From a bacterium (GTDB taxonomy: Bacteria; Desulfobacterota; Binatia; HRBIN30; CADEER01), in NCBI GenBank assembly GCA_039934135.1, contig JBDTMT010000022.1:1-21506 (forward strand): a stretch of 21,506 nucleotides of DNA, read 5' to 3'. The notes under the pieces are model-generated. The model was not told the DNA's origin and ran no database searches. It worked only from the letters and a program-made list of their open reading frames with translations. Below, in pieces: positions 2,842 to 21,426 of this stretch. How positions within the stretch are numbered: the first letter of the stretch is position 1; each line of letters opens with the position of its first letter. A program made the translations under genes and the position numbers.

Positions 2842-3796
2842 GCGAGACTCGGCGCGCAGGGCGCGCGACGGGCGTGTACTCTTCGCATAGGGCAGCGTTG
2901 TGCGGCGGGCTCGCGGCGCGGCGCTGCTCGGCGAGCAGGCCGGCGACCAGGCATTGCCCCATCAGCACGACGATCACCCCGGCGAGCGCCGCTAGCCAGA
3001 CGCCGCTGAGGTGCACCACGCCGAGCCGGTCGAGCCCCAGCGCGGCTATGCACAGCAGCGCCGCCGCCCCCGCGCCGCTCAGCGCCAGGACGGCGAAGAA
3101 GTGCAACGGTCGATCGCGATAGCGGGTCAGCAGCAGCACGGTCAGCAGATCGAGCAGCGCCTTCGGTAAGCGGGTGCCCCCGTACTTCGAGGCGCCGTGC
3201 CGCCGCGGACTGTGGCGCACGTCGATCTCGCCGATGCGCGCGCCGAGCCCCTGAGCGAAAACCGGGATGAAGCGATGCAGTTCGCCGTACGGATGCAGTT
3301 GTTCGATCAGCTCGCGGCGGTAGGCCTTGTAGCCGCAGTTGACGTCGTGCAGCGGCACGCCGAAGACGCGCCGCACAACGGCGTTGAACAGCCGCGAGGC
3401 GACGACCTTGCCGCGCCGATCCCGGCGCAGGCGTTTGCGGCCCGAGACCAGGTCGAACCCGGCGTCGATGGCCGCGACAAAGCGCGGCAATTCGGCTGGA
3501 TCGTCCTGCAGATCCGCATCCATCGTCACGACCACATCGCCGCGCGCCGCGGCGAACCCGGCCGCCAGAGCGGCGGCCTTGCCGTTGTGCGTGCGCAGGC
3601 GCAGCACCCGCACGCGCGCGTCGACGTCGGCCAGCGCCCGCAGGGCCTCGAGCGAGCCGTCGCTGCTGCCGTCGTCGACGAAGAGGATTTCCGACTCGCC
3701 ACCCAGCCCGTCGAGCGCCAACCCCAGTTGCGCGGCGAGCGGCGCCAGGCTGCGGCGCTCGTTGAACAGCGGAATGACGATGCTGAGCACATTCAT
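2834..3796 (-). CDS. GT2-family polyprenyl-phosphate glycosyltransferase (ArnC / GtrB / DPM1-like) with two C-terminal transmembrane (TM) helices.
   Basis: It carries the signatures VIPLFNE, ILFVDDGSSDGS and TMDADLQDDP (the DxD-type catalytic motif of ArnC/DPM1-like enzymes) plus GRKRLRRDRRGK. The C-terminal hydrophobic helices (FFAVLALSGAGAAALLCIAALGL...VVLMGQCLVAGLL) match the GtrB/ArnC architecture. The start is taken as the internal ATG at 3796, which forms an ATGA overlap with the stop of the upstream membrane-protein gene. The ORF itself extends to 3838. Confidence 0.85.
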   Translation of the reverse strand: MNVLSIVIPLFNERRSLAPLAAQLGLALDGLGGESEILFVDDGSSDGSLEALRALADVDARVRVLRLRTHNGKAAALAAGFAAARGDVVVTMDADLQDDPAELPRFVAAIDAGFDLVSGRKRLRRDRRGKVVASRLFNAVVRRVFGVPLHDVNCGYKAYRRELIEQLHPYGELHRFIPVFAQGLGARIGEIDVRHSPRRHGASKYGGTRLPKALLDLLTVLLLTRYRDRPLHFFAVLALSGAGAAALLCIAALGLDRLGVVHLSGVWLAALAGVIVVLMGQCLVAGLLAEQRRAASPPHNAALCEEYTPVARPARRVSHG

Positions 3797-5466
3797 GGCG
3801 GATTGCCGCCTTCTGCCGCGTCGCGCCGCGGTGGGCAAGGCGGCGGCAGGCCGTTCGGCCAGGGTTGCGGTGTGTCGGCGGTGCGCAGGGCGCGCACGGG
3901 AATGGCGCCGAAGCGGCCGATTTCGACGTAGGCGCTGTCGATGTACGCGATGATGCGCGCCGAGTACGCGGCGAAGAGCCGATCCTCGCGGTTGTCGAGC
4001 ATGCGCGAGCCGTCGCCGAGCACCAGCGGCACGTGTTGGCGGCGCACCGTGTCGATCCAGCGCTGCTGGTCCGCCTCGGTGCTGAAGAAGCCCGGCGACC
4101 AGGCCGGCTGTGCGCCGCCGAAGCGTCGGTCGGAGAAGTAGTAGGCGCCGATCAGCGGCGGCAGGGCGATGAGGTGATCACCCGCCTCGGTGCAGCGGCG
4201 CACGTACTGAATCGCCTGCACCAGCGTGTCGGCGGGATTCTCCGCCGTCAGCTGCGCCAGCAGTGCGTCGCGCGGCATGGCGTGCACGCGCCACGCGCGC
4301 AGGCCGGCGCCGGCGTTGGGGCTCGGCCAGCCGCTCATGCCCATGGCCGCCCGGAGCCCGACCATGAGCACGCCGCCGAGCACCACCGTAGCCGCGATCG
4401 CCCATGCGGTTGCCCGGCCGCGCCGCGCTGCCGCGGCCGACCAGATACGTCCGGCGAACCAGGCGCAGAGCACGAAGCAGAGCGCGATCGCCTGCAACAG
4501 GTGGGTGTAGTCGGAGCGATGCGCCGCATGCATCAACACGGCCTGCGCCATGACGGCTGCCGTCGCCAGGCGTCGCCGTTCGGCGACGGCGCGGCAGACA
4601 CCGGGCCACAGTGCCGCGACCAGCGCGAGCGGCGGCAACGCGTAGAAGCTGACGAAGAGCAGGAAGGTCGCGTTGGCTGGCGCGGCCAGCGGCTTCGTCC
4701 CGTCGAACGATGGGAAGGGCAGCGCCATGCCACTGGCGTGGCGCGGTCCATTGATCAACGTGTCGGCGATGTAGGTGCCGAGCCCACCGCGCCACGCCAA
4801 CCAGATCAGCCACGGCGCCGCCCAGACCGCGACCAACGCGGCGAGCTGCGCCAGGCGGAGCGCGGGCCGACTCGCCGGCCCGGGTCGACTCGCGACCGCG
4901 ACCGCGGCGCCGAGGCCCGTGAAAGCGCCGAAGTCGGCGCGAAACAACGCCGTCGCCGCGACGGCCGCGGCGAGCAGCCACAGCGAGCGAGGCGACGGCC
5001 GCTCGATCTCACGCCACGCCGCCCACAGGCAGACCACCGGACCGAGCACGGCGTAGTACTTGTACAGACGCGGCGCGAGCACCAACGCGACAAACAACAG
5101 CAGCGCGGCGATTACTCTGCTGCCGCCGGCGATCCACATGAGGCGGAACAACACCGCATACGCGAGGCTGTACGCGGCGCTGACCAGGCACAGATCGGCG
5201 AGCGGACAGGCGCCCAACAGCCATTGCGCCAGCGCGCTCGGGTAGTAACGCAGCGGACCGTAGTCGGTGTGCCAGTCGACGAACGGGTACTCGCCGTGCA
5301 GGATCTGATTCGCCCCGCCGAGCTGGTGGACCCAATCGCCGTCGATCGCCAGCACCGCCGGCGTCGGCCAGCGCAGCGCCATCCAGACCAGCGTGATCAG
5401 CGCCACCACCAGCAGCGTGCGCACGACGCGCGACGTCGATTCGGAATCGAGAAGCGACGCGCTCAT
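3793..5466 (-). CDS. Polytopic integral membrane protein, putative GT-C-type glycosyltransferase (ArnT/PMT_2-like), partner of the adjacent GT2 enzyme.
   Basis: There are at least 10 predicted hydrophobic helices, for example LLVVALITLVWMAL, VIAALLLFVALVLAPRLY, LWLLAAAVAATALF and FLLFVSFYALPPLALVAAL. A candidate acidic loop motif (AIDGDW) sits in the first extracytoplasmic loop. The C-terminal ~150 aa form a soluble domain. The start is chosen at the ATG at 5466 (MSASLLDSES...) because a GAGG sits upstream and because the ORF's upstream extension to 5724 would overlap the GST gene ending at 5525. The stop overlaps the GT2 start (ATGA). Confidence 0.7.
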   Translation of the reverse strand: MSASLLDSESTSRVVRTLLVVALITLVWMALRWPTPAVLAIDGDWVHQLGGANQILHGEYPFVDWHTDYGPLRYYPSALAQWLLGACPLADLCLVSAAYSLAYAVLFRLMWIAGGSRVIAALLLFVALVLAPRLYKYYAVLGPVVCLWAAWREIERPSPRSLWLLAAAVAATALFRADFGAFTGLGAAVAVASRPGPASRPALRLAQLAALVAVWAAPWLIWLAWRGGLGTYIADTLINGPRHASGMALPFPSFDGTKPLAAPANATFLLFVSFYALPPLALVAALWPGVCRAVAERRRLATAAVMAQAVLMHAAHRSDYTHLLQAIALCFVLCAWFAGRIWSAAAARRGRATAWAIAATVVLGGVLMVGLRAAMGMSGWPSPNAGAGLRAWRVHAMPRDALLAQLTAENPADTLVQAIQYVRRCTEAGDHLIALPPLIGAYYFSDRRFGGAQPAWSPGFFSTEADQQRWIDTVRRQHVPLVLGDGSRMLDNREDRLFAAYSARIIAYIDSAYVEIGRFGAIPVRALRTADTPQPWPNGLPPPCPPRRDAAEGGNPP

Positions 5467-5524
5467 CCTCGTCGCCTCACGCGGCGGCGATCGGACCGGC
5501 GCGGCACCGCCTGCGCGGCCTGCC

Positions 5525-6154
5525 TCACGCGGCGGCCGCGGGCGTCGGACTGGTCGACTGCACCGCCGGACGAGCTCGCAGACGCTCGACCCAGGCCCGC
5601 ACCGCCGGCCGCGGCTCGAGCAGATGTGCCAGCCCACACGCGGCCAATTCACAGACCAGCGGCGCATAGGCGACATCGGCCAGCGAGAAGGTGCCGACGA
5701 TGTAGTCGCCGCGCCCGAGCACACCTTCCAACACGTCGAGGTGCTCGCCGAGCTCGTCAGCGGCGCGCGCCTGATCGTCGCGGTCCCACGCCGACTCGGG
5801 CAGGAACAGGCGCGTCAGCCAACGCTTGAAGGGCGGCGCGAAGTAGTCGCCCGAGGCGAGCATCCACTGCCGCACCTGCGCCCGTTGCGCCGCATCGGCC
5901 GGCAACAGCGCCGGTAGCGGATGGCGCTCTTCGAGGTACTCGAGGACCGCCAGCGACTCGCAGATGACCAGACCGTCGTCCTCCAGCACCGGCACCTGGC
6001 CAAACGGATTCAGCCGCCGGAAGGCCGCGCCGCGCGTCGCGCCACCCGGCAGGTCGACCTCAACCTCCTCACAGGCGATGCCCTTCTCGCGTACCGCAAT
6101 GCGCACGCGACGCGGGAACAGCGAAAACGGATGCCAGTGCAGGCGCATGACCAT
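5525..6154 (-). CDS. Glutathione S-transferase (GST).
   Basis: It has the N-terminal thioredoxin-like GST domain (MRLHWHPFSLFPRRVRIAVREKGI...FGQVPVLEDDGLVICESLAVLEYLEE) and the C-terminal alpha-helical GST domain. Confidence 0.85.
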   Translation of the reverse strand: MVMRLHWHPFSLFPRRVRIAVREKGIACEEVEVDLPGGATRGAAFRRLNPFGQVPVLEDDGLVICESLAVLEYLEERHPLPALLPADAAQRAQVRQWMLASGDYFAPPFKRWLTRLFLPESAWDRDDQARAADELGEHLDVLEGVLGRGDYIVGTFSLADVAYAPLVCELAACGLAHLLEPRPAVRAWVERLRARPAVQSTSPTPAAAA

Positions 6155-6935: not shown

Positions 6936-10531
<3,596 letters not shown>

Positions 10532-10535
<4 letters not shown>

Positions 10536-11098
10536 GCGCGCGGCTCAGTGGAGAAGCCAGGGAGTTCGTGCGCCAGTATGCCCGTCCGCCCGTGCGCCCG
10601 ACGCGCTCCGCCGTCAGGGGTTTTCAATTGCGTGTAATACATGGGGGACTCGTTGACTCGACCCTCTCCGCCACCCACAGCCTTGCTGTAAGCCGTCAAT
10701 CGACGAACCAAACCCGAACAGAGCTGACGAACCTTCTGCGCCTGGTCATACACCGACTGGAACGTCGCGCGATCGATGCATTTCTCGTCCAACGCGACGT
10801 AGAGACAGCTTTGGATCTCGGACGCCGATCGAATCGCGTATCGCAGGAAGCGCTTGAACTCGTTGCGCGACGAACTGTCGAATCCTTCGGCGATGTTGTT
10901 CATCGTCGAAACCGAGGCGCGGCGCATCTGGTCGGCAAGGCCGTGATCGTTCCGCAGCGCCGGAAGGCGGACCAATCGATACACCTGACCGGTCAGCATG
11001 CGTGCAGCCTGCCACGCCTTCAGATCCTCAAACCGTCGTACCAACCCCACAGTTTGGCCCCTCGCTCTTTCTGGTCCTTGACGGGCTAACGGGCACAC
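10532..11098 (-). CDS. Four-helix-bundle protein of the TIGR02436 family (Avd-like; the '23S rRNA intervening sequence protein' family), with an unusual ~55-aa C-terminal extension.
   Basis: The core (FEDLKAWQAARMLTGQVYRLV...ADQMRRASVSTMNNIAEGFDSSSRNEFKRFLRYAIRSASEIQSCLYVALDEKCIDRATFQSVYDQAQKVRQL) matches the conserved family pattern (F.EL.vWQ.A..L...vY.L...FP..E.ygL.sQiRRAavSI..NIAEG....s..ef.rFl.iA.GS..El...L.la...). The ORF's outermost start is a GTG at 11098. A GTG at 11050, preceded by a GAGGGG sequence, is a plausible true start. The stop (10532-10534) overlaps the dnaE ATG. Confidence 0.75.
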
Positions 11099-11110
11099 CG
11101 GCGCACGGGC

Positions 11111-12643
11111 TCACTCCCACTCAATGGTCGCCGGTGGCTTCGAGCTGACGTCATACACGACGCGATTCACTCCGGCGACTTCGTTGATAATGCGCGACGA
11201 CATTTTCGCCAGGAGCTCGTACGGCAGGCGGCTCCAGTCGGCGGTCATGCCGTCGACGCTTTCGACGGAGCGGATGGCGAGGACGTGTTCGTAGGTGCGT
11301 TCGTCGCCCATGACGCCGACGGTTTTGACCGGCAGGAGGACGCAGAAGGATTGCCAGACGCGGTCGTACCAGCCGGCGGCGCGGATCTCTTCGTCCATGA
11401 TGGCGTCGGCGGCCTGCACGATGGCGACGCGCTCGGCGTCGACGGGGCCGATGATGCGGATGGCGAGACCGGGGCCGGGAAACGGGTGGCGGCCGACCAG
11501 CGAGGCGGGAATGCCGAGCGTTGCGCCGAGCTCGCGCACTTCGTCTTTGAAGAGCTCGCGCAGCGGCTCGACGAGCTTGAGATGCATGCGCTCTGGCAGT
11601 CCGCCGACGTTGTGGTGGCTCTTGATGGTCGCCGACGGGCCCTTGAACGACACCGATTCGATGACGTCGGGATACAGCGTGCCCTGCGCCAGGAAGGCGA
11701 CGTTCGGCAGCGCGCGCGCCTCTTCCTCGAAGACTTCCACGAAGGTGACGCCGATGATGCGACGCTTCTGCTCCGGATCGCTGACCCCGGCGAGGCGGCG
11801 CAGGAAGCGCGCCCCGGCGTCGACCGCCTTGATGCGGAAGTGGAAGGCGTCGCCGAGGAACTGCATGACGCGCGTCGCTTCGTCGCGCCGCAGCACGCCG
11901 TTGTCGACGAAGATGCAGGTCAGCTGGTCGCCGATGGCGCGGTGGATCAGCGCCGCGGTGACGGTCGAGTCGACGCCGCCGCTCAGGCCGCAGACCACGC
12001 CGGCCGAGCCCACCTGGGCGCGGATGCGCTCGGTCTCGCGGTCGATGAAGTTCTCCATCGTCCAGTCGGCCTTGGCCTTGCAGATGCGGAAGAGGAAGTT
12101 CTCCAGCAGATCGCGGCCGCGACGCGAGTGCACCACCTCGGGATGGAACTGGATGCCGTAGCGCCGGCGGGTACGGTCGGCGAGCGCCGCGATCGGCGAG
12201 TTGTCGCTGTGCGCCAGTACCTTCCAGCCGGCGGGGATCTCTTCCAGGCGGTCGGCGTGACTCATCCACACCGGCGTCTTGTGGCCGATGCCGAAGCCCT
12301 CGAAGAGATCGCCGTCGTCATCGACGATCAGCTCCGCGGGGCCGAACTCGCGCGCCGCGGCGCGGGCGGTGCGCGCGCCGTCCTCCTTGGCCAGCACGCT
12401 CATGCCGTAACAGACGCCGAGCAGCGGCACGCCCAACTGCGCCAACCCGGGATCCGACAGCGGCGCATTCACCGCATACACGCTCGCCGGCCCGCCGGAG
12501 AGGATGATCCCCTCCGGCCGCATCTCGCGAATCCGCTCCAGCGACAGGTTGTACGGATGCAGCTCGCAGTACACGCGCGCTTCGCGCACCCGCCGCGCGA
12601 TCAGCTGCGTGTATTGGGAGCCGAAGTCGAGGATGAGGATCAT
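11111..12643 (-). CDS. guaA: GMP synthase (glutamine-hydrolysing).
   Basis: The N-terminal class I glutamine amidotransferase domain ([21 protein letters not shown]...GVCYGM) and the ATP-pyrophosphatase domain (SGGVDSTV) are present. The protein ends in the family-typical ...PATIEWE. Confidence 0.97.
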
Positions 12644-12654
12644 GCTGAAACCCT

Positions 12655-12681
12655 GTGAGCCGGTGAGCCGGTGAGCCGGTG
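12655..12681. repeat. Tandem octamer repeat (GTGAGCCG) of 3.4 copies, lying 12-38 nt upstream of the guaA start codon. An inverted partner (CACCGGCTCACC) sits at 12793-12804 near the guaB stop.
   Basis: Three perfect copies run from 12655 to 12678 with a partial fourth. The reverse-complement 12-mer lies about 120 bp away within the same guaB-guaA intergenic spacer. Confidence 0.6.
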
Positions 12682-12813
12682 GACGGGTCCATGCGGGAGC
12701 AGACCCCTCGACACCCGGACACCAGCAACAGGCGCGGACGAGGACAACGCAGCGGTCACAACACTGAACATGCTGTCACGGGCGCACTGGCACACCGGCT
12801 CACCGACGAACAC

Positions 12814-14289
12814 TCAGCGGTCCCCCGACCGCTGATAGTTCGGCGCTTCCTTGGCAATGAACACATCGTGCACGTGGCTCTCCTGCAGTGAGGCGTTGGA
12901 GACGCGCATGAAGCGGGCGTGTTCCTGCAGGTCGGAGACGCTGCGGCAGCCGACGTAGCCCATGCCGGCTTTCAGGCCGCCGACGAGCTGCGCGATGATG
13001 AAGCTGAGCGGCCCCTTGTGCGGCACGCGCCCTTCGATGCCTTCGGGGACCAGCTTAACCGCATCGGCGGCGTCCTGGCCGTAGCGGTTGCGGCTGCCTT
13101 CGCGCTCGCGCATCGCCTCCAGCGAGCCCATGCCGCGGTACAGCTTGTAGGTGCGGCCCTGGTACAGAATCGTCTCACCCGGGCTCTCCTCGGTGCCGGC
13201 GAACAGGCCGCCGATCATCACCGAGTCGGCGCCGGCGGCGAGTGCCTTGGGAATATCGCCGGAGAACTTGATGCCGCCGTCGGCGATCAGCGGGATGTCG
13301 AACTCCTTGGCGACACGCGCCGCGGCGGCGACGGCGGTGAGTTGCGGCACGCCGACGCCGGAGATGACGCGCGTCGTGCAGATCGACGCCGGCCCCATGC
13401 CGACCTTGAGCCCGTCGGCGCCGGCTTCGGCGAGGGCCCGTGCGCCTTCGGCGGTGGCGATGTTGCCGGCGACGACGTCGATGTCCGGGAACGCCGCTTT
13501 GATCTCGCGCACGGTGTCGATGACGTTCGCCGAATGCCCGTGCGCGGTGTCGAGGATCAACACGTCGGCGCCAGCGGCAACCAGGCGTTCGGCGCGCTCG
13601 CGCTGATCGACGCCGGTGCCGATGGCGCCGGCGACGCGCAGGCGGCCGAGCGAATCCTTGCAGGCGTCGGGGAATTGCGCCGCCTTGTTGATGTCCTTGA
13701 CCGTGATCAGTCCCTTCAGGCGTCCCCGTGCGTCAACGATCAGCAGCTTCTCGATGCGATGCTGGTGCAAGCGATCCTTGGCATCCTCGAGACTGATGCC
13801 GGGCGCGGCGGTGACCAAATTGTCCTTGGTCATCACCTCGGACACCTTGCGATCGAGGCGCTTCTCGAAGCGCAGGTCGCGATTGGTGAGGATGCCGACC
13901 AGGCAGCCGTCCTTGGTCACCGGCAGGCCGGAGATGCGGTAACGCCGCATGACGTCGAGCGCTTCGAAGATCGGCTGGTCCGGATGCACGGTCACCGGAT
14001 CGATAATCATGCCGCTCTCGGATTTCTTCACCTTGTCGATCTCGTGCGCCTGATGTTCGATCGACAGGTTACGGTGCATGACGCCGATGCCGCCCTCTTG
14101 CGCCATGGCGATGGCCATCGCCGCTTCGGTGACGGTGTCCATGGCGGCGCTGATGAGGGGAATGTTCAGCGACACGCGGCGCGACAGCCGCGTCGTCACA
14201 TCGGCTTCGTGGGGCAGAAAGGTCGACGCGCCCGGCACCAGCAGAACATCGTCGAAGGTGAAGCCTTCCGGCATGTCATACGTGAACAT
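12814..14289 (-). CDS. guaB: IMP dehydrogenase.
   Basis: The TIM-barrel IMPDH region with tandem CBS domains and a catalytic Cys loop ([11 protein letters not shown]) is present. The start is chosen at ATG 14289 ([19 protein letters not shown]), which is preceded by GGAAGGAGATCCG-ATG. The ORF extends to 14448, but that extension does not look native. Confidence 0.97.
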
Positions 14290-14317
14290 CGGATCTCCTT
14301 CCGGAACGTCGGCCGGT

Positions 14318-14350
14318 GCGGCGCGCCTCACGCCCAGAGAGGCGCGCCGC
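14318..14350 (-). promoter_or_regulatory. Perfect GC-rich hairpin (12-bp stem GCGGCGCGCCTC / GAGGCGCGCCGC, 9-nt loop) in the guaB 5' leader, 29-61 nt upstream of the guaB ATG.
   Basis: The sequence was read directly. No U-tract follows on either strand, so it is not a classical intrinsic terminator and is more likely a leader structure. Confidence 0.35.
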
Positions 14351-14379
14351 CAGGCGGTCGTTGCCCAGTCGCAGCCCGC

Positions 14380-14395
14380 CGATCGGTACCGATCG
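14380..14395. promoter_or_regulatory. Perfect 16-bp palindrome CGATCGGTACCGATCG in the divergent guaB / gamma-carbonic-anhydrase promoter region; candidate operator for a dimeric regulator.
   Basis: It was read directly and is a perfect dyad centred on GTAC. It lies 91-106 nt upstream of the guaB ATG and about 127 nt upstream of the carbonic-anhydrase ATG. Confidence 0.3.
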
Positions 14396-14521
14396 AGGCG
14401 CGGCTGCGTGCATCGGGCAAACCATGGCGTCAGGTAGCAGAGACGCAAGTCCTAAGGCAACCCACCCTGCCCCTCCACAACATCTTGTGGATACGCCCCG
14501 CGCCTCGCTATGAGGCCACCG

Positions 14522-15037
14522 ATGCTGATCGAGCTCGACGGCGTACGGCCGACGATCGACGCCGACGCCTGGGTCCAGGCCAGCGCGCAGGTGATCGGCG
14601 ACGTGACCCTCGGGCCGCAGGCGAGCGTGTGGTTCAACGTCGTGCTGCGCGGCGACGGCTTCTGGATCCGCGTCGGGGCGCGCTCGAACATCCAGGACAA
14701 CTCCACCGTGCACGTCGCCACGGCGCGGCACGGCACCGCGGTCGGCGACGATGTCACCGTCGGCCACAACGTCGTGCTGCACGGCTGCGCCATCGGCGAC
14801 CGCTGCCTGATCGGCATCGGCTCGATCGTCCTCGACCGCTGCGTCGTCGGTGACGACTGCATCATCGGCGCCGGCTCGCTGCTGACGCCGGACACCGTCA
14901 TCCCGCCCGGCCACCTCGCGCACGGCCGCCCCGCCAAGCCGGTGCGCCCGATCACCGACGCCGAGCGCGCCCACATCCTGCAGTCGGCGGCGAACTACGC
15001 GCTGAATGCGGCGCGCTACCGGGTTGGCGCGCGCTGA
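14522..15037 (+). CDS. Gamma-class carbonic anhydrase family protein (hexapeptide-repeat, YrdA/PaaY-like).
   Basis: It has the left-handed beta-helix hexapeptide repeats (VIGDVTLG, VGDDVTVGHNVVLHGCAIGDRCLIGIGSIVLDRCVVGDDCIIGAGS) and the family N-terminus MLIELDGVRPTIDADAWV. The ATG at 14522 has a GAGG 6 nt upstream. An alternative ATG lies at 14510. Confidence 0.85.
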   Translation: MLIELDGVRPTIDADAWVQASAQVIGDVTLGPQASVWFNVVLRGDGFWIRVGARSNIQDNSTVHVATARHGTAVGDDVTVGHNVVLHGCAIGDRCLIGIGSIVLDRCVVGDDCIIGAGSLLTPDTVIPPGHLAHGRPAKPVRPITDAERAHILQSAANYALNAARYRVGAR

Positions 15038-15155
15038 TCGCCTATCGCTTATCGCCTATCGTTTAGATCGGCGCAGCTCGATCGCGACGGCAGAGCGATC
15101 GTTCGCTCGCTCCGAAGCTCCTGACGATAGGCGATCCGCGATCAGCGACCAGCAA
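15038..15155. repeat. Second, more degenerate copy of the same palindromic element family, lying between the convergent gamma-carbonic-anhydrase and epoxide-hydrolase genes.
   Basis: Its right arm CGATAGGCGATCCGCG (15124-15139) is identical over 16 nt to 18120-18135. Its left side carries tandem CGCCTATCG copies (15040-15048 and 15052-15060) that are inverted relative to the right arm. Confidence 0.5.
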
Positions 15156-16067
15156 TCAGCCAGGCCGTACAAAATAGCGCAGAGCGTTGTTGAGGACATC
15201 CGCCTGCTCCCACTGCAGGAAGTGGCCGCAGTCGGGGACGACGAAGGGGCCGACGTGTTCGGGATAGGCGATGCGGGCGCGGGCCATGAAGTCGCTCGGC
15301 AGGACGTGGTCGTCGGGTCCGTAGAGAATCAGCGTCGGCACCGGCACCGGGGCGAAGAAGCACGGCGGTTCGACAACCGGGCGGTTGCCGAAAGCGTATT
15401 CGTAGTTGGCGATGCTGGCGCGGAACTTCGCTGCGTCGGCGAAGGGTTCGCACATGAAGCGCACCTCGTCGGGACTGAATTTACCAGGCGAGGTCCAGAA
15501 GCGATGGCCGTAGAACTCGGCGATGTAGCGCATGCGCCGCTCCGGTGAGTCGAGCTCAGCCGCCAGGCCGTCGGCGTCGGTGCCCTGGCGGACGAAGTAG
15601 TCCATCGCCAGTCGCGCCTCGTGGGCGATCCCCGGCTGGATCCCGGCAGCGGCATACGCGTCGATAAGATAGGGCGTAACCGTATTGAACAGGCACAGCC
15701 GCTCGACGAAGCCGGGAAAGCGCAGCGCCAGATCGGCGGCGACGGCGCCGCCCAGGTCGCCCGCCACCACCGCACAGTGCTGATGGCCGAGGCGGTCGTG
15801 CACCAGCGCGTACAGGTCGCGGGCATGGGTGGCGAGATCGTAGAAGCCGTCCGGCGCGCAATCCGAATCACCGAAGCCGCGCAGATCGGGGGCGATCACC
15901 TCGAAGCCGGCTGCGGCCAGTGGCGCCAGGTTGCGCCACCAGATGCGCTTGGTCTCCGGCCAGCCGTGAATCAGCAGCAGCGGCGCGCCGCCGCTGCCGG
16001 CGCGGATGTAGGCGAGGCCCAACGCGTCGCGCACCCGCGCGCGCTGGACCTCAAACTCGCGCCCCAT
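15156..16067 (-). CDS. Alpha/beta hydrolase, epoxide-hydrolase / haloalkane-dehalogenase-like.
   Basis: The HGWP oxyanion motif (LLLIHGWPETKRIW), a nucleophile elbow (VAGDLGG) and a C-terminal catalytic His region (PDCGHFLQWEQ) are present. It sits 14 nt downstream of a GST gene, in an apparent operon. Confidence 0.85.
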   Translation of the reverse strand: MGREFEVQRARVRDALGLAYIRAGSGGAPLLLIHGWPETKRIWWRNLAPLAAAGFEVIAPDLRGFGDSDCAPDGFYDLATHARDLYALVHDRLGHQHCAVVAGDLGGAVAADLALRFPGFVERLCLFNTVTPYLIDAYAAAGIQPGIAHEARLAMDYFVRQGTDADGLAAELDSPERRMRYIAEFYGHRFWTSPGKFSPDEVRFMCEPFADAAKFRASIANYEYAFGNRPVVEPPCFFAPVPVPTLILYGPDDHVLPSDFMARARIAYPEHVGPFVVPDCGHFLQWEQADVLNNALRYFVRPG

Positions 16068-16081
16068 TCGTTCGAACGCGG

Positions 16082-16690
16082 TCAGGCCGCGGCGCTCGGC
16101 CGCTGCTTGAACGCGGCGTGCCAGCGACCGACGTTCTGCAGGCCGGGATCGACGGGGATCTCGGCGAAGGCGGCCATCTCCAGTGCCGCGAACAGCGTGC
16201 AGTCGGCAATCGTCGGCTGCGCACCGCAGACGAAGGGCTGGTTGCCGATCTTGGCGTCCAGGACCTTCAGGTTGGTCGCCAGGCGCAGCCGGCCCTGCTC
16301 GGCGGCATCGGCTGACTGCTTCACTCGGGCGGCGAAGAACGCGTGCGTGTTCTGGAACACCGTCGCGATGCCGAACAGCACGCCGAGCTCGCAGATGCGC
16401 TCGGTGGCGCGCACCCGCGCGCGCTCCACGGCGCTGGTGCCGAGCATCGGCGGCGTCGGATGCAGCTCCTCGAGGTACTCGATGATCGCCAGTGATTCGG
16501 TCAGGTGACTGCCGTCGTCGAGTTGCAAGACCGGCAGACCGCCGAGCGGGTTCTTCTGCAGAAAATCGGGCTTGCGGTTGGCGCCATTCATCACGTCGAC
16601 CTGCTCGACGGGGATCTCCAGACCCTTCTCAGCCAGATAGACGCGCACCTTCTTCGGATTCGGGGCCAGGGCGAAGTCATAGAGTTTCAT
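16082..16690 (-). CDS. Glutathione S-transferase.
   Basis: It has the N-terminal GST thioredoxin-like domain (MKLYDFALAPNPKKVRVYLAEKGLEIPVEQVDVMNGANRKPDFLQKNPLGGLPVLQLDDGSHLTESLAIIEYLEE) and the C-terminal helical domain. A strong RBS, AAGGAGG, lies 7 nt upstream of the ATG. Confidence 0.85.
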   Translation of the reverse strand: MKLYDFALAPNPKKVRVYLAEKGLEIPVEQVDVMNGANRKPDFLQKNPLGGLPVLQLDDGSHLTESLAIIEYLEELHPTPPMLGTSAVERARVRATERICELGVLFGIATVFQNTHAFFAARVKQSADAAEQGRLRLATNLKVLDAKIGNQPFVCGAQPTIADCTLFAALEMAAFAEIPVDPGLQNVGRWHAAFKQRPSAAA

Positions 16691-16813: not shown

Positions 16814-18034
16814 ATGGAGGAGCTGTCGGTCGAACGCCAGGATAGGCTGCGCGCGGCGCTGCGCCGCAACGGCCTGGTGCGCCGACCGGAGATCCTGCGC
16901 CGCTATCTGCGGCGCCACGGTCTGCGCTTCACCGAGGGCAACCGCGTCCACATCTTCGCCACCGGCGACGCCGGCCTCGCCGCCATGCTGACGGCGATCG
17001 AGGGCGGGACGCAGCGCATCCACCTGGAGACATACATCCTGCGCGCCGACGCCATCGGCCGCCGCTTCCTGGCGGCGCTGACGCACAAGGCGCGCGGCGG
17101 CGTCAGCGTGCGCGTGATCTACGACGCCGTCGGTTCGCTGAGGCTCGATCCGGTGGAGCTCGACGCCCTGCGCGACGCGGGTGGACAGGTGCTGCGCTTC
17201 AATCCCCTGCGCCACCTGTATCCGCAGTGGCTGCCGCGGCGGCGCGACCATCGCAAGATCCTCGTCGTCGACGGCCGCGTCGGCTTCACCGGCGGACTCA
17301 ATATCGGCGACGAGTACAACGCCGGCCCCGGCAGCCACCGCGCCATCTGGCGCGACACGCACCTGCAGGTCGAAGGCCCGGCCGTGCAGGATCTCGAGGC
17401 GGTCTTCCTCGAGAGCTGGTTCCGCTCCGACGGCTCGGATCTGCCGTGGGGCCAGATGCTCGGCGGGCCGCCGCCGGCCGTCGACGGCGAGCGCGTCTCC
17501 GTGGTCGCCGACGGTCCCTCCTATCGCCACCGCGTCGTGCGCGATCTCGTCCTGCTCGCGCTCGCCACGGCGCGCCGCAGCGTCTGCCTGACCAGCCCCT
17601 ACTTCGCGCCCGACGTGAAGGTGCTTTCCGGGCTGGCGCGCGCCGCGCGCCGCGGCGTCGCGGTGACGCTGCTGCTCGCCGGCCGCACCGATCATCCAAT
17701 TCTGCGCCGTGCGACGCGCAGCCTGCTGCCGCGCCTGCTCGATGCCGGTGTCGTCGTCTACGAAGTCGACGCCGCCATGCTGCACGCCAAGACCACGGTG
17801 CTCGACGACATCTGGGCCATGGCCGGCACCTCGAACCTCGATCGCCAGAGCTTCGAGCGCAGCTACGAGGTCAACCTCGTCATCGAAGGCGGCGACGTGC
17901 CGCGCCAACTGGCGGCGCTCTTCGATGCCGATATCGCCGCGGCGATCCGCCTCGACGCCGCCCGCCTGGCGCGCCGCACTCTGCCCGAGCGACTCCTCGA
18001 CCGCATCTGCGCGCTGGTGCTGTGGATCGTCTGA
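16814..18034 (+). CDS. Phospholipase D-superfamily protein / cardiolipin synthase (ClsB-like, no N-terminal TM segment).
   Basis: Two HKD motifs are present: HRKILVVDGRVGFTGGLNIGDEY and HAKTTVLDDIWAMAGTSNLDRQS. The start is chosen at the internal ATG 16814 (MEELSVERQ...) because the ORF's upstream extension to 16505 would overlap the oppositely oriented GST gene. Confidence 0.85.
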   Translation: MEELSVERQDRLRAALRRNGLVRRPEILRRYLRRHGLRFTEGNRVHIFATGDAGLAAMLTAIEGGTQRIHLETYILRADAIGRRFLAALTHKARGGVSVRVIYDAVGSLRLDPVELDALRDAGGQVLRFNPLRHLYPQWLPRRRDHRKILVVDGRVGFTGGLNIGDEYNAGPGSHRAIWRDTHLQVEGPAVQDLEAVFLESWFRSDGSDLPWGQMLGGPPPAVDGERVSVVADGPSYRHRVVRDLVLLALATARRSVCLTSPYFAPDVKVLSGLARAARRGVAVTLLLAGRTDHPILRRATRSLLPRLLDAGVVVYEVDAAMLHAKTTVLDDIWAMAGTSNLDRQSFERSYEVNLVIEGGDVPRQLAALFDADIAAAIRLDAARLARRTLPERLLDRICALVLWIV

Positions 18035-18138
18035 GGACGCGGATCGCCTATGAGCAAGCGGTGTTCGGACGGCCGGTCGTACACCATCAGCGATGAGCGT
18101 TCTTGCGTTAGGCGATCGGCGATAGGCGATCCGCGTCC
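18035..18138. repeat. MITE/REP-like palindromic element of 104 bp with perfect 17-bp terminal inverted repeats (GGACGCGGATCGCCTAT ... ATAGGCGATCCGCGTCC). It exactly fills the gap between the cls stop and the EEP gene stop.
   Basis: The terminal inverted repeats were read directly at 18035-18051 and 18122-18138. An internal direct duplication of TAGGCGATC is present. The element boundaries coincide with the two convergent stop codons at 18032-18034 and 18139-18141. Confidence 0.6.
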
Positions 18139-18885
18139 TTAGGCGCTGGCCCGGCGTGTCGCGGAGCGTGCAGCCGGTTTGCGGTCCCACAGGCCGCCGA
18201 TGACGGCGCGGATCGGCAGGTGGTCGGAGGCGCGGCGGGCGCGGCTGGTGTTGTGCACCTCGACGGCGACCAGTGCATGGCGCGGTTGCACCCAGACGCG
18301 GTCGAGCGCGAACAGCGGCATGCTCGATGGAAAGGAGCGCACGCCGGGCGTGCGGCCGAAGCGGCGGTGCAGATGCCGCAACGGTTGGCTCGGCGGGCGC
18401 CATTCGTTGAAGTCGCCGAGCAGGATCAGCGGCGCGGCGCTGCCGGCGTCGATCGCCTCCAAGAGGCGCTCGACCTGCACCTGCCGCTCGCGCAGGCCGA
18501 GGCCGAGATGCGCGGCGATGACACGCACGCGCTTGCCGTGCACCTGCAGATCGACGTCGAGTGCGCCGCGGCGTTGGGCACGCGCCACGCTGAGGTCGAT
18601 ATTGCGCACCTCCAGCACCGCGTGGCGCGTCAGCAGGGCGTTGCCGTACTGGCCGCGCGCGCCGTACAGCACCGGTCCCCATACGCTCTCCAGACCGGTC
18701 GCTTCGGCGAAGCAGCGCAGCTGATCGACGCCGTTGCGCACGTGGTAGCGGAAGTCGACTTCCTGCAGCGCGATGATGTCGGCTTCGAGCTCCTCGATGA
18801 CCTTCACGACGCGCGCCGGATCGTGCTTGCCGTCGCGGCCGATGCAGCGATGCACGTTGTACGAGGCGACCGTCAGCGTCCGCAT
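18139..18885 (-). CDS. Endonuclease/exonuclease/phosphatase (EEP) family protein (YbhP-like).
   Basis: The N-terminus (MRTLTVASYNVHRC...DIIALQEVD), the internal motifs GDFNE and SDHLPI, and the catalytic Asp/His pattern are typical of the EEP fold. A GAGGA RBS precedes the ATG. Confidence 0.85.
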   Translation of the reverse strand: MRTLTVASYNVHRCIGRDGKHDPARVVKVIEELEADIIALQEVDFRYHVRNGVDQLRCFAEATGLESVWGPVLYGARGQYGNALLTRHAVLEVRNIDLSVARAQRRGALDVDLQVHGKRVRVIAAHLGLGLRERQVQVERLLEAIDAGSAAPLILLGDFNEWRPPSQPLRHLHRRFGRTPGVRSFPSSMPLFALDRVWVQPRHALVAVEVHNTSRARRASDHLPIRAVIGGLWDRKPAARSATRRASA

Positions 18886-20150: not shown

Positions 20151-20233
20151 CGACCGCACCGCGCGACCGGTGATCGGACCGTTCCGGGCCACGCTGCCGA
20201 ACCGATCACTGATCACCTTCCTGGAGGATCTGA

Positions 20234-20620
20234 ATGGCGAACTCAGTCGGCTACCACGAATCCGAAGACAAACTGCTCGGCGAAACGCAGGACAACCATC
20301 GCGCCCTCACCTCCATGCAGGAGGAGCTCGAAGCGGCCGATTGGTACGATCAGCGCGTCGACGCGGCAGATTGTCCCGAGCTCAAGGCGATCCTGAAGCA
20401 CAACCGCGACGAAGAGGTCGAGCATTTTACCATGCTGCTCGAGTGGCTGCGGCGGCGCGATGCCAAGTTCGCCGAGCAGCTCAAGGAACGACTGTTCACC
20501 AGCGGCTCCATTGTCGCGCAGGAGCAGTCCGAGAAGGGCGGCGGCGCCGGCGCCGCGGCGACGCCGGCCGGCGGCGGCTCACTCGGAATCGGCAGTCTCA
20601 AGGGAGGACAAAGCCTGTGA
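20234..20620 (+). CDS. Encapsulated ferritin-like protein (EncFtn / Flp) with a C-terminal encapsulin cargo-loading peptide.
   Basis: The core (RALTSMQEELEAADWYDQRVDAADCPELKAILKHNRDEEVEHFTMLLEWLRRRDAKFAEQLKERLF) matches the EncFtn ferroxidase-centre pattern (EEL...E.EH). A Gly/Ala-rich flexible linker leads to a C-terminal GSLGIGSLKG targeting peptide, which is the canonical Family-1 encapsulin cargo signal. A GGAGG RBS lies 6 nt upstream. The stop overlaps the encapsulin GTG start (GTGA). Confidence 0.9.
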   Translation: MANSVGYHESEDKLLGETQDNHRALTSMQEELEAADWYDQRVDAADCPELKAILKHNRDEEVEHFTMLLEWLRRRDAKFAEQLKERLFTSGSIVAQEQSEKGGGAGAAATPAGGGSLGIGSLKGGQSL

Positions 20621-21426
20621 ACAATCTCCGACGCGAACTGGCGCCGATCTCCGTCCCGGCCTGGCAGGCAATCGATACGGAGGCGCGGCGCGTCCTCAAG
20701 CTCGAGCTCGCCGGCCGCAAAGTGGTCGACCTCAAGGGCCCGCTCGGCCCTGAACACGCGGCGGTCAACACCGGTCGCATCACGCCGCTGAAGGGCGGAC
20801 CCGTCGCCGGCGTCACTGCGGCGCGCCGCGAGGTGCTGCCGATGGTGCAGCTCATCGGCGAGTTCGAGCTGTCGCGCGCCGAGCTCGACGCCGTCGAACG
20901 CGGCGCCGAGGATCCCGACCTCGGCGCGCTGGTGCAAGGCGCGTCGCGCATCGCGCAGGCCGAGGACACGGCGGTATTTTACGGCTACGCCGCCGGCGGC
21001 ATCCGCGGCATGGCGGAAGCCTCGCCGCATGCGGCGTTGCCGATCGCCGACGACTACAACACCTATCCGAAGACCGTCGCCGAAGCGCTGCGTTTGCTGC
21101 GCGTCGCCGGCGTCGACGGGCCGTACGCCCTGGCGCTGGGCCCGCGCTGCTACACCGGCCTGATGCAGTCGACCGGCGACGGCGGCTACCCGGCCCTGCA
21201 GGTGGTCAAGCGCATCGTCGAAGGGCCGATCATCTGGGCCCCGGCGGTCGACGGCGCCATCGTGCTCAGCACGCGCGGCGACGACTTCGAGCTCACCGTC
21301 GGCCGCGATCTGTCGATCGGCTATCGGAGCCATTCCGAGACGACGGTGAAGCTGTATTTCACCGAGACCATGACCTTCCGCGTCCTGACGCCGGAAGCCG
21401 CCGTGGCCCTCGTCTACAAGAAATGA
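20617..21426 (+). CDS. Family 1 encapsulin shell protein (HK97 fold, Linocin M18-like), 269 aa, a length consistent with a T=1 shell.
   Basis: From its GTG start (VNNLRRELAPISVPAWQAIDTEARRVLKLELAGRKVVDLKGPLGPEHAAVNTGRI...), the protein aligns along its full length, including the C-terminus (...GGDFELTVGRDLSIGYRSHSETTVKLYFTETMTFRVLTPEAAVAL), with canonical encapsulins. A GGAGG lies 8 nt upstream of the GTG. The ORF's in-frame upstream extension from 20170 overlaps EncFtn and is not native. Confidence 0.92.
   Translation: MNNLRRELAPISVPAWQAIDTEARRVLKLELAGRKVVDLKGPLGPEHAAVNTGRITPLKGGPVAGVTAARREVLPMVQLIGEFELSRAELDAVERGAEDPDLGALVQGASRIAQAEDTAVFYGYAAGGIRGMAEASPHAALPIADDYNTYPKTVAEALRLLRVAGVDGPYALALGPRCYTGLMQSTGDGGYPALQVVKRIVEGPIIWAPAVDGAIVLSTRGDDFELTVGRDLSIGYRSHSETTVKLYFTETMTFRVLTPEAAVALVYKK

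Follow-up and report, generated by a model that had tools for sequence, protein, structure and literature searches.

Why does a gene for a small four-helix-bundle (4HB) protein lie between guaA and dnaE, with its stop codon overlapping the start codon of the replicative polymerase? The question is raised by a single stretch of DNA, 21,506 nt long and 69% GC (contig JBDTMT010000022.1; this whole stretch is what we call the window), in which guaB, guaA, the 4HB gene and dnaE are all on the minus strand. The 4HB gene sits between two inverted arrays of 8-nt tandem repeats, and its reading frame runs through the second of these arrays to terminate at the dnaE start. Judging from comparisons with related genomes we lean, though only slightly, towards the view that translation of dnaE is coupled to that of the 4HB open reading frame (ORF), which is carried in a hairpin cassette inside the operon that is similar to both the intervening sequences (IVS) of 23S rRNA and the short tandemly repeated repetitive (STRR) elements of cyanobacteria.

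The four-helix-bundle frame and its stop at the dnaE start

The junction with dnaE is an ATGA at 10532-10535 (minus strand), in which the TGA stop of the 4HB ORF (10532-10534) overlaps the ATG of dnaE (10533-10535); the surrounding sequence reads gcgcgcATGAgc. The dnaE gene itself (6936-10535, minus strand) encodes DNA polymerase III alpha (NF004226, 1422 bits) with the N-terminus MSFAHLHLHT. It has no Shine-Dalgarno sequence (SD): the 25 nt 5' of the ATG give an anti-SD duplex of just -1.9 kcal/mol, the values for guaB and the 4HB gene being -8.8 and -8.7. Both the overlap and the absence of an SD from these 25 nt had been pointed out in the initial annotation of this DNA and both are confirmed. 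On the other side of the 4HB gene is guaA (GMP synthase; 11111-12643, minus strand; NF000848, 786.7 bits), whose TGA stop is at 11111-11113.

The assignment of the intervening gene to TIGR02436, also made in the initial annotation, is equally sound. Its longest ORF (10532-11098, minus strand; 188 aa) scores 96.7 bits against PF05635 (cut-off 33.8) and 92.1 bits against TIGR02436 (cut-off 24), with a profile core that covers residues 21-135 of the 188. This ORF does begin 12 nt after the guaA stop, as had been stated, but its GTG at 11098 falls within the 5' repeat arm and the true start is probably GTG 11050, 60 nt past guaA. We prefer the latter codon because all of the 4HB homologues have the N-terminus M/V-[GA]-L-V-x-R-F-E-D-L in common, because the SD-like GAGCGAGGGG (11058-11068, minus strand; dG -8.7) lies 7 nt 5' of it, and because residues 1-20 are predicted to be disordered. 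The 4HB gene proper is at 10676-11050 (minus strand), the four helices being within residues 21-141 of the annotated 188-aa ORF. In an AlphaFold2 monomer model these helices (residues 21-43, 52-73, 78-104 and 110-141) have a predicted local distance difference test score above 90, and residues 142-188 are without structure.

A Foldseek search with this model retrieves the stand-alone S23p-type proteins 2GSC (XCC0516; template-modelling (TM) score 0.87, root-mean-square deviation 1.5) and 2RLD (BT_0352; TM 0.88) as the best matches; both entries have five chains, and a profile match of the 4HB protein to 2GSC has E = 6e-16. More distant is Avd, the nucleic-acid-associated accessory protein of diversity-generating retroelements (DGRs), which shares the four-helix-bundle fold (4DWL, target-normalised TM 0.84; 8UB7 is also matched) but is only 8% identical and belongs to a different subfamily. 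Such a structural likeness might suggest an Avd gene that has lost its partners. We find this hardly credible, since the window contains neither a reverse transcriptase, nor a pair of template and variable repeats (TR/VR), nor a target gene within its 21.5 kb, and the syntenic relatives are no different, their 4HB gene always having guaA and dnaE as neighbors. As the initial annotation had already concluded, this is not a DGR; the candidate was rejected on Pfam scans of the window ORFs, which gave no reverse transcriptase, and on the lack of any TR/VR-like direct repeat of ~100-150 nt.

Since the family core ends at about residue 135-141, a C-terminal extension of 47-53 aa is left over. The initial annotation had described an extension of ~55 aa that reaches dnaE, which is close to this figure, but its composition had been missed: a short linker with a conserved motif comes first and the translated 3' repeat arm second. 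The linker motif RVNESPMYY (10634-10660, minus strand) is an instance of a clade-specific [VI]-x-[ED]-x4-5-[YW], which is kept in 10 of 11 loci with differing codons, which shows that the frame is coding past the Pfam core.

These eleven loci are that of the window and ten further guaB-guaA-4HB-dnaE loci (L001, L002, L004, L005, L006, L009, L162, L164, L165 and L166), which were obtained by a one-genome-per-species scan and four contig look-ups. Their closest labels are Candidatus Binatia, Deltaproteobacteria and Desulfurellales metagenome-assembled genomes (MAGs). A comparison of orthologous guaA-dnaE regions was what the initial annotation had proposed, and its outcome favours coupling. In all eleven loci the 4HB frame is open through the linker and the 3' array (the ORFs range from 136 to 215 aa), and in all eleven it stops at -4 to +8 nt from the dnaE start, a start that was verified by the motif M-x-F-x-H-L-H. 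The tails in question are anything from 17 to 96 codons long and the junction sequences are very different. For the other two frames, just 2 of 22 cases have a stop no more than 10 nt away from the start of dnaE.

Could such a pattern be an accident of high GC content, with the ORF simply running to its first stop and dnaE initiating independently? Stops are rare in every frame of a 69% GC sequence, there is no in-frame stop in the repeat units of the window, and the tail is predicted to be disordered, all of which would suit an accident. We consider it very improbable nonetheless, given that in 11/11 loci the first in-frame stop comes no more than 8 nt away from where dnaE starts, despite the range of tail lengths, that the other two frames fail to do the same, and that 4HB family members at other genomic sites are mostly 120-136 aa, stopping before or inside their own 3' array. 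That the 4HB frame always ends at the dnaE start in eleven genomes indicates instead that dnaE translation is probably coupled to it.

Inverted repeat arrays at an insertion site and in other phyla

The two arrays that bracket the 4HB gene had not been noticed in the initial annotation. The 5' arm (11081-11115, minus strand; sense AGTGAGCCCGT GCGCCGGT GTGCCCGT TAGCCCGT) starts on the guaA stop codon and is made of tandem 8-nt units that are G+T-rich. The 3' arm (10559-10600, minus strand; sense CGGGCGC ACGGGCGG ACGGGCAT ACTGGCGC ACGAACTC CCT) is made of A+C-rich tandem 8-nt units; it is translated as ...RRAHGRTGILAHEL... within the 4HB tail, and ends 23 nt short of the dnaE ATG. Together they form a 35-nt inverted repeat (11081-11115 with 10559-10593) that is 80% complementary, and the helix joining them is ~30 bp. 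A mini-construct of the joined arms has a predicted folding energy of -82.6 kcal/mol (z = -5.0), with none of 200 shuffles equally stable, and the predicted fold of the full-length RNA contains the long-range arm-to-arm helix. An Rfam scan of the window gave no rRNA, riboswitch or other family, so the cassette is neither a known RNA family nor an rRNA intervening sequence.

All ten relatives have the same arrangement, a tandem array right after the guaA stop and its reverse complement just 5' of dnaE. The repeat unit varies with the lineage: ACGGGCNN in the window, and in the others ACCGGCTC, ACTGGCTN, CACGTCAG (with ~22 units in L006), ACGCGCNC, CCGGTCA and still others. As the arms remain complementary even though their unit differs by lineage, the two arms change in concert. 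In quantitative terms, a locus's own arms form a duplex of -71 kcal/mol on average, versus -51 +/- 10 kcal/mol for cross-locus pairs of similar composition, and the own arm pair ranked first in its row for 8 of the 11 loci. In the six loci from the genome scan, identities are 67-89% for DnaE and 76-89% for GuaA, but just 46-63% for the 4HB protein, whose closest homologue (69% identity) is also in a guaA-4HB-dnaE context.

With respect to the origin of this arrangement, a metagenome scan with the GuaA C-terminus (the matches listed having 55-77% identity) revealed at least 15 more distant loci, among those matches, in which dnaE comes directly after guaA and a 4HB gene is absent. The guaA stop of L089 overlaps the start of dnaE as an ATGA, and in L093, L101 and L124 the two genes are ~2-18 nt apart. 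The cassette is thus an insertion, a status that had also escaped the initial annotation, and the ancestral guaA-dnaE junction that it now occupies was probably a tight and coupled one. From sequence comparison, the cassette is retained at this site throughout a clade with Candidatus Binatia- and Deltaproteobacteria-labelled relatives, and it has been vertically stable there while DnaE diverged to 67% identity.

Two other observations concern the same junction. In L122 (~3190-3335) and L133, a guaA-dnaE spacer without a 4HB gene can carry inverted 8-mer arrays with a short loop, the ORF-less sequence in these distant genomes being GGTTAAGG CTGAGGTT GAGGGTAA ... AAACCTTAGCCTGAACCTTAACCTAAG; it resembles a cassette of reduced size or in decay at this site. 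In addition, the sequence TGAGC is present at both outer edges of the window's cassette (11109-11113, the guaA stop plus GC; and 10530-10534, within the dnaE aTGAGC), and likewise in L002. This pair may have arisen as the target-site duplication of an overlapping GTGA/ATGA junction in the ancestor, or simply by chance.

The cassette is far from being restricted to this clade. Flanking inverted repeats, defined by a Watson-Crick-only local score of at least 14, were found at 47 of 73 homologous 4HB loci, whereas just 2 of the 223 position-shifted controls taken from these loci reach that score. The 73 loci come from Bacteroidota, Ignavibacteria, Omnitrophota, Cloacimonadota, Planctomycetota, Nitrospirota, Verrucomicrobiota, Acidobacteriota, Chloroflexota and one cyanobacterium. 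Their arrays have periods of 7, 8 or 9 nt, mostly equal in both arms, and all 27 of the 3'-unit consensus sequences contain AC, against a chance expectation of ~40%. In 46/47 loci the 5' arm is rich in G+T (0.67) and the 3' arm in A+C (p = 7e-13), a polarity that does not depend on which strand is transcribed; L021 and the cyanobacterial L075 look like exceptions to it. Because a strand of A and C only cannot fold on itself, melting of the long helix would always leave the leader of the downstream gene open. At 65 of 68 loci the gene upstream runs in the same direction, and at 49 of 60 both neighbors do, so that the cassette normally lies inside a transcription unit. An Rfam scan of 20 related loci found no rRNA gene around any of the 4HB genes, the sole matches being two tRNAs in L011.

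Some of these loci hold more than one element. Two 4HB cassettes with different repeat units (L010 and L081) are ~6 kb apart on the Omnitrophota contig JBDRPX010000023.1. In L021 even the shifted controls match strong inverted repeats, with a score of 43, a sign that such elements may be clustered there.

The unit polarity (AC in every 3' unit, and a G+T-rich 5' arm almost without exception) is one of several features that might be explained if the arrays act on the DNA level or as protein sites, either as the ends of a mobile or recombining cassette or as iterated sites for a 4HB pentamer. The adjacency to dnaE and the long ORF would then be incidental. Presence/absence polymorphism at the guaA-dnaE junction and the possible 5-nt direct repeat TGAGC around the cassette in the window and L002 fit this explanation. 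So does the composition of the gene: its GC content at third codon positions (GC3) is 0.74 in the window, against 0.87-0.91 in the neighboring genes, and is below that of the neighbors in all loci. (For the 4HB core, at 10694-11050 in the window, the values in the window and the ten relatives are 0.67-0.83, versus 0.74-0.98 for guaA/dnaE, despite long co-residence.) Moreover, in 7 of 8 relatives an ORF-less hairpin in the guaB-guaA spacer has the same unit type as that genome's own 4HB arms, with a similar GCCNGT-type unit in the window, and Avd, the structural relative found by Foldseek (4DWL, 8UB7), binds nucleic acid in the DGR ribonucleoprotein. All the same, we regard this explanation as rather doubtful. 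The cassette encodes no transposase or recombinase, and the differing units of two cassettes within one genome (L010 and L081, on one contig) make a single sequence-specific transposase unlikely. Its vertical stability at the site, over the time in which DnaE fell to 67% identity, does not suggest mobility; its strong tendency to share the direction of the upstream gene argues for a constraint at the level of the transcript, and the stop-at-start pattern would be left unexplained.

Probable coupling and possible processing of the transcript

The first gene of the run is guaB (IMP dehydrogenase; 12814-14448, minus strand; TIGR01302, 624.6 bits), which probably starts at ATG 14289 with the SD GGAAGGAG (anti-SD duplex energy -8.8 kcal/mol). 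The initial annotation had suggested a single transcript on the basis of minimal spacing between the genes. This spacing does not hold for guaB and guaA, which are separated by a 170-nt spacer with a repeat hairpin. Consistent with the suggestion, both promoter-like and terminator-like sites are absent from the minus strand of 10300-11400, although the promoter scan was for sigma-70-type sites only and this gives just weak backing for co-transcription.

If guaB, guaA, the 4HB gene and dnaE are indeed on one transcript, the arms could pair in the mRNA and would then juxtapose the guaA stop and the dnaE start, partly hiding the latter. Ribosomes on the 4HB ORF would open the 3' arm and terminate on or beside the dnaE AUG, after which either the same ribosomes would reinitiate at dnaE or new ones would load on the exposed A/C-rich leader. 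Coupling of the 4HB gene to dnaE would in this way stand in for the ancestral coupling of guaA to dnaE. In classical translational coupling (ATGA, TGATG), the stop of an upstream ORF overlaps or abuts an SD-poor start, and the upstream ribosome opens a helix that hides this start. Here, unlike in the classical cases, the upstream ORF is an inserted, selfish-looking gene that reaches the start only through a repeat array.

There are a number of points that weigh against such a coupling, or at least against a strict one. The exact ATGA overlap, whose conservation the initial annotation had wondered about, is found in just 3 of the 11 loci (the window, L002 and L005); the remaining loci have a separate TGA, TAA or TAG 2-8 nt 5' of dnaE. 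The absence of an SD carries over to only some of the relatives. It is missing in L004, L006, L165 and L166 as in the window, which speaks for coupling, and weak in L005, but a GAGG-type SD precedes dnaE in L001, L002, L009, L162 and L164; independent initiation is thus possible in about half of the relatives and coupling is perhaps partial. The contrast between the 4HB frame and the other two frames has a Fisher p-value of 4e-7, which overstates the independence of eleven related loci. Within the tail, the linker (10601-10693) has a GC3 of 0.61, no excess, though over 31 codons only, and the tail motif TGxPAHR was rejected as evidence for a conserved peptide or a conserved frame, because with an 8-nt period the same peptide comes from all three frames. 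Nor do the arm mismatches (G:T 45, A:C 51) favour a helix at the RNA level over an inverted repeat at the DNA level. That comparison of G:U with A:C is however uninformative, since with a G/T-rich 5' arm and an A/C-rich 3' arm the mismatches are mostly G.A or U.C. The last codons of guaA can pair with the first codons of dnaE (CGAAGC/GCTTCG; 16 nt at 88% in L001), but this is only suggestive because conserved protein motifs fix both sequences, and the pairing may stem from the conserved protein sequence alone. Finally, all the organisms with this locus are uncultured MAGs or metagenome contigs.

The closest parallel to the cassette is the 23S rRNA IVS with an S23p ORF that is found in Coxiella burnetii, Leptospira and others. 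In the Coxiella element, an ORF of the same family is enclosed by a 28-bp stem of terminal inverted repeats that RNase III cleaves, with two or three heptamers (GACAGAT) in tandem 5' of the ORF; it has been described as a selfish element whose ORF is inferred to be unexpressed and decaying (PMC4990558). The cassette has in common with such elements a PF05635 ORF, terminal inverted repeats around it with a stem of ~28-35 bp, short tandem repeats adjoining the ORF, and co-orientation with, and dependence on, the host's transcription, the IVS being regarded as a tolerated selfish insertion. It differs in that the host transcript is a guaA-dnaE mRNA operon instead of helix 25 or 45 of 23S rRNA, and in that the arms are built wholly of 7-9-nt tandem units. 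Furthermore, the ORF, in contrast to that of Coxiella, has a good SD and is conserved, and in this clade it is extended to the start codon of the next gene.

By analogy with these elements the helix might also be an RNase III site, and it is possible, though we would not back it as the principal function, that the cassette is mainly an element of RNA processing or stability, with its arms as the RNase III substrate. A cut there would part a hairpin-protected guaBA mRNA from a short-leader dnaE mRNA, allowing very different levels of GuaA and DnaE, and the translated tail would be a by-product. The common ORF family and the common layout of stem and tandem repeats in the RNase III-excised Coxiella sequence are in line with this idea, as are the length (~30 bp) and great stability of the helix, the co-orientation with the upstream gene at 65/68 loci, the ORF-less hairpins of like type at other gene junctions in the window, and the fact that STRR hairpins have been proposed as transcript stabilisers. 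On the other hand, mismatches of 1-2 nt every 8 nt could impede RNase III, and processing alone does not account for a 4HB frame that in 11/11 loci terminates at the start of dnaE. Processing and coupling are compatible, neither excluding the other.

Related repeat systems and other hairpins in the window

The units of cyanobacterial STRR sequences (CCCCAGT, CAACAGT and TTGGTCA) contain GT, as do the 5' units here (GCCAGT, GCCGGT). In STRR sequences, 7-bp units repeated in tandem fold into hairpins between genes (hupS and hupL, for example), and transcript stabilisation or translational coupling has been proposed for them (PMC2670836). The likeness extends to the short tandem units in inverted arrays that form intergenic hairpins between the genes of an operon. 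The differences are a non-cyanobacterial host (STRR being a feature of heterocyst-forming, filamentous cyanobacteria), a period of 8 (7-9 across loci) and units that do not resemble STRR1-3.

There is also some similarity to the repetitive extragenic palindromes (REPs), their mosaic elements (BIMEs) and the REPtrons, which are intergenic hairpin repeats at gene ends, with a gene for a REP-associated tyrosine transposase (RAYT) lying between inverted REPs. Like a REPtron, the cassette has a coding copy between inverted copies and ORF-less copies elsewhere in the genome. Unlike a REPtron, it has 7-9-nt tandem arrays that differ between copies, and it encodes a small helical bundle instead of a Y1 transposase.

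One could go further and propose that stand-alone S23p/Avd-like 4HB genes and STRR-like hairpins are the two halves of a single, widespread and undescribed system, a proposal that we consider unlikely as a whole. Self-contained cassettes would insert at the stop/start junctions of operons and, as intervening sequences, in rRNA. The arms would re-join the flanks at the RNA level, rendering the insertion silent, and ribosomes would couple or reinitiate across it. A 4HB pentamer would bind 7-9-nt repeats, those of its own arms as well as those of the ORF-less copies in the same genome, and this clade would have recruited the system for gating the translation of its replicative polymerase. A link between 4HB genes and periodic hairpins outside of rRNA was not found in the searchable literature, which omits most subscription journals, and an earlier description is possible.

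Be that as it may, this locus brings together three long-standing puzzles: what the S23p/IVS proteins do, what STRR-type hairpins do, and how selfish insertions in essential operons can be harmless. According to the data, 4HB genes of many phyla occupy the loops of periodic repeat hairpins, in the same orientation as the host's transcription and not in rRNA alone; should this prove general, the intervening sequences of rRNA would be one special case within a broader class. As a testable system, the locus offers a 600-nt cassette with defined arms, a protein that perhaps binds these arms, and translation of an SD-less essential polymerase as the output. For annotation, the lesson is that the long C-terminal extensions and early starts of 4HB ORFs are in part translated repeat arms.

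The window has five periodic regions, against 0.1 in shuffles. It also contains three ORF-less hairpins of a similar periodic build, which look like the STRR class outside of the cyanobacteria. The first, a solo hairpin of inverted 8-nt arrays, occupies the guaB-guaA spacer (12645-12805, minus strand). Its 5' arm (12777-12805, minus strand) is GGTGAGCC GGTGTGCC AGTGCGCC and its 3' arm (12645-12689, minus strand) is three copies of ACCGGCTC, ending 12 nt before the SD-less guaA ATG. The spacer as a whole has a predicted fold of -84.5 kcal/mol, an energy taken alone with no shuffle comparison. A hairpin of the same kind is present in the guaB-guaA spacer of all eight relatives examined, where this spacer measures 108-325 nt, versus ~11-42 nt in distant genomes that lack the hairpin.

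The other two hairpins are built on an ATCGCCT/AGGCGAT heptamer and separate convergent genes, one between a hexapeptide transferase and an alpha-beta hydrolase (15030-15160; z = -5.2) and the other between a PLD-like and an EEP nuclease gene (18032-18142; z = -6.3). Both reach exactly from stop codon to stop codon of the convergent pair. They make up a REP-like repeat family whose unit is unlike that of the guaBA-dnaE hairpins.

Three further features of the window deserve mention. A gene for an encapsulin shell protein (20170-21426, plus strand; Linocin_M18, 282 bits) has ~150 extra N-terminal residues in its longest ORF, and a good SD precedes the ATG at 20234. Two glutathione S-transferase paralogues (5525-6154 and 16082-16690, both minus strand) have a 90-nt stretch in common at 70% identity, the window's only long direct repeat. 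Lastly, a 643-aa ORF at 3793-5724 (minus strand) matches no Pfam family and has the strong GC3 signal of a coding sequence (0.87).

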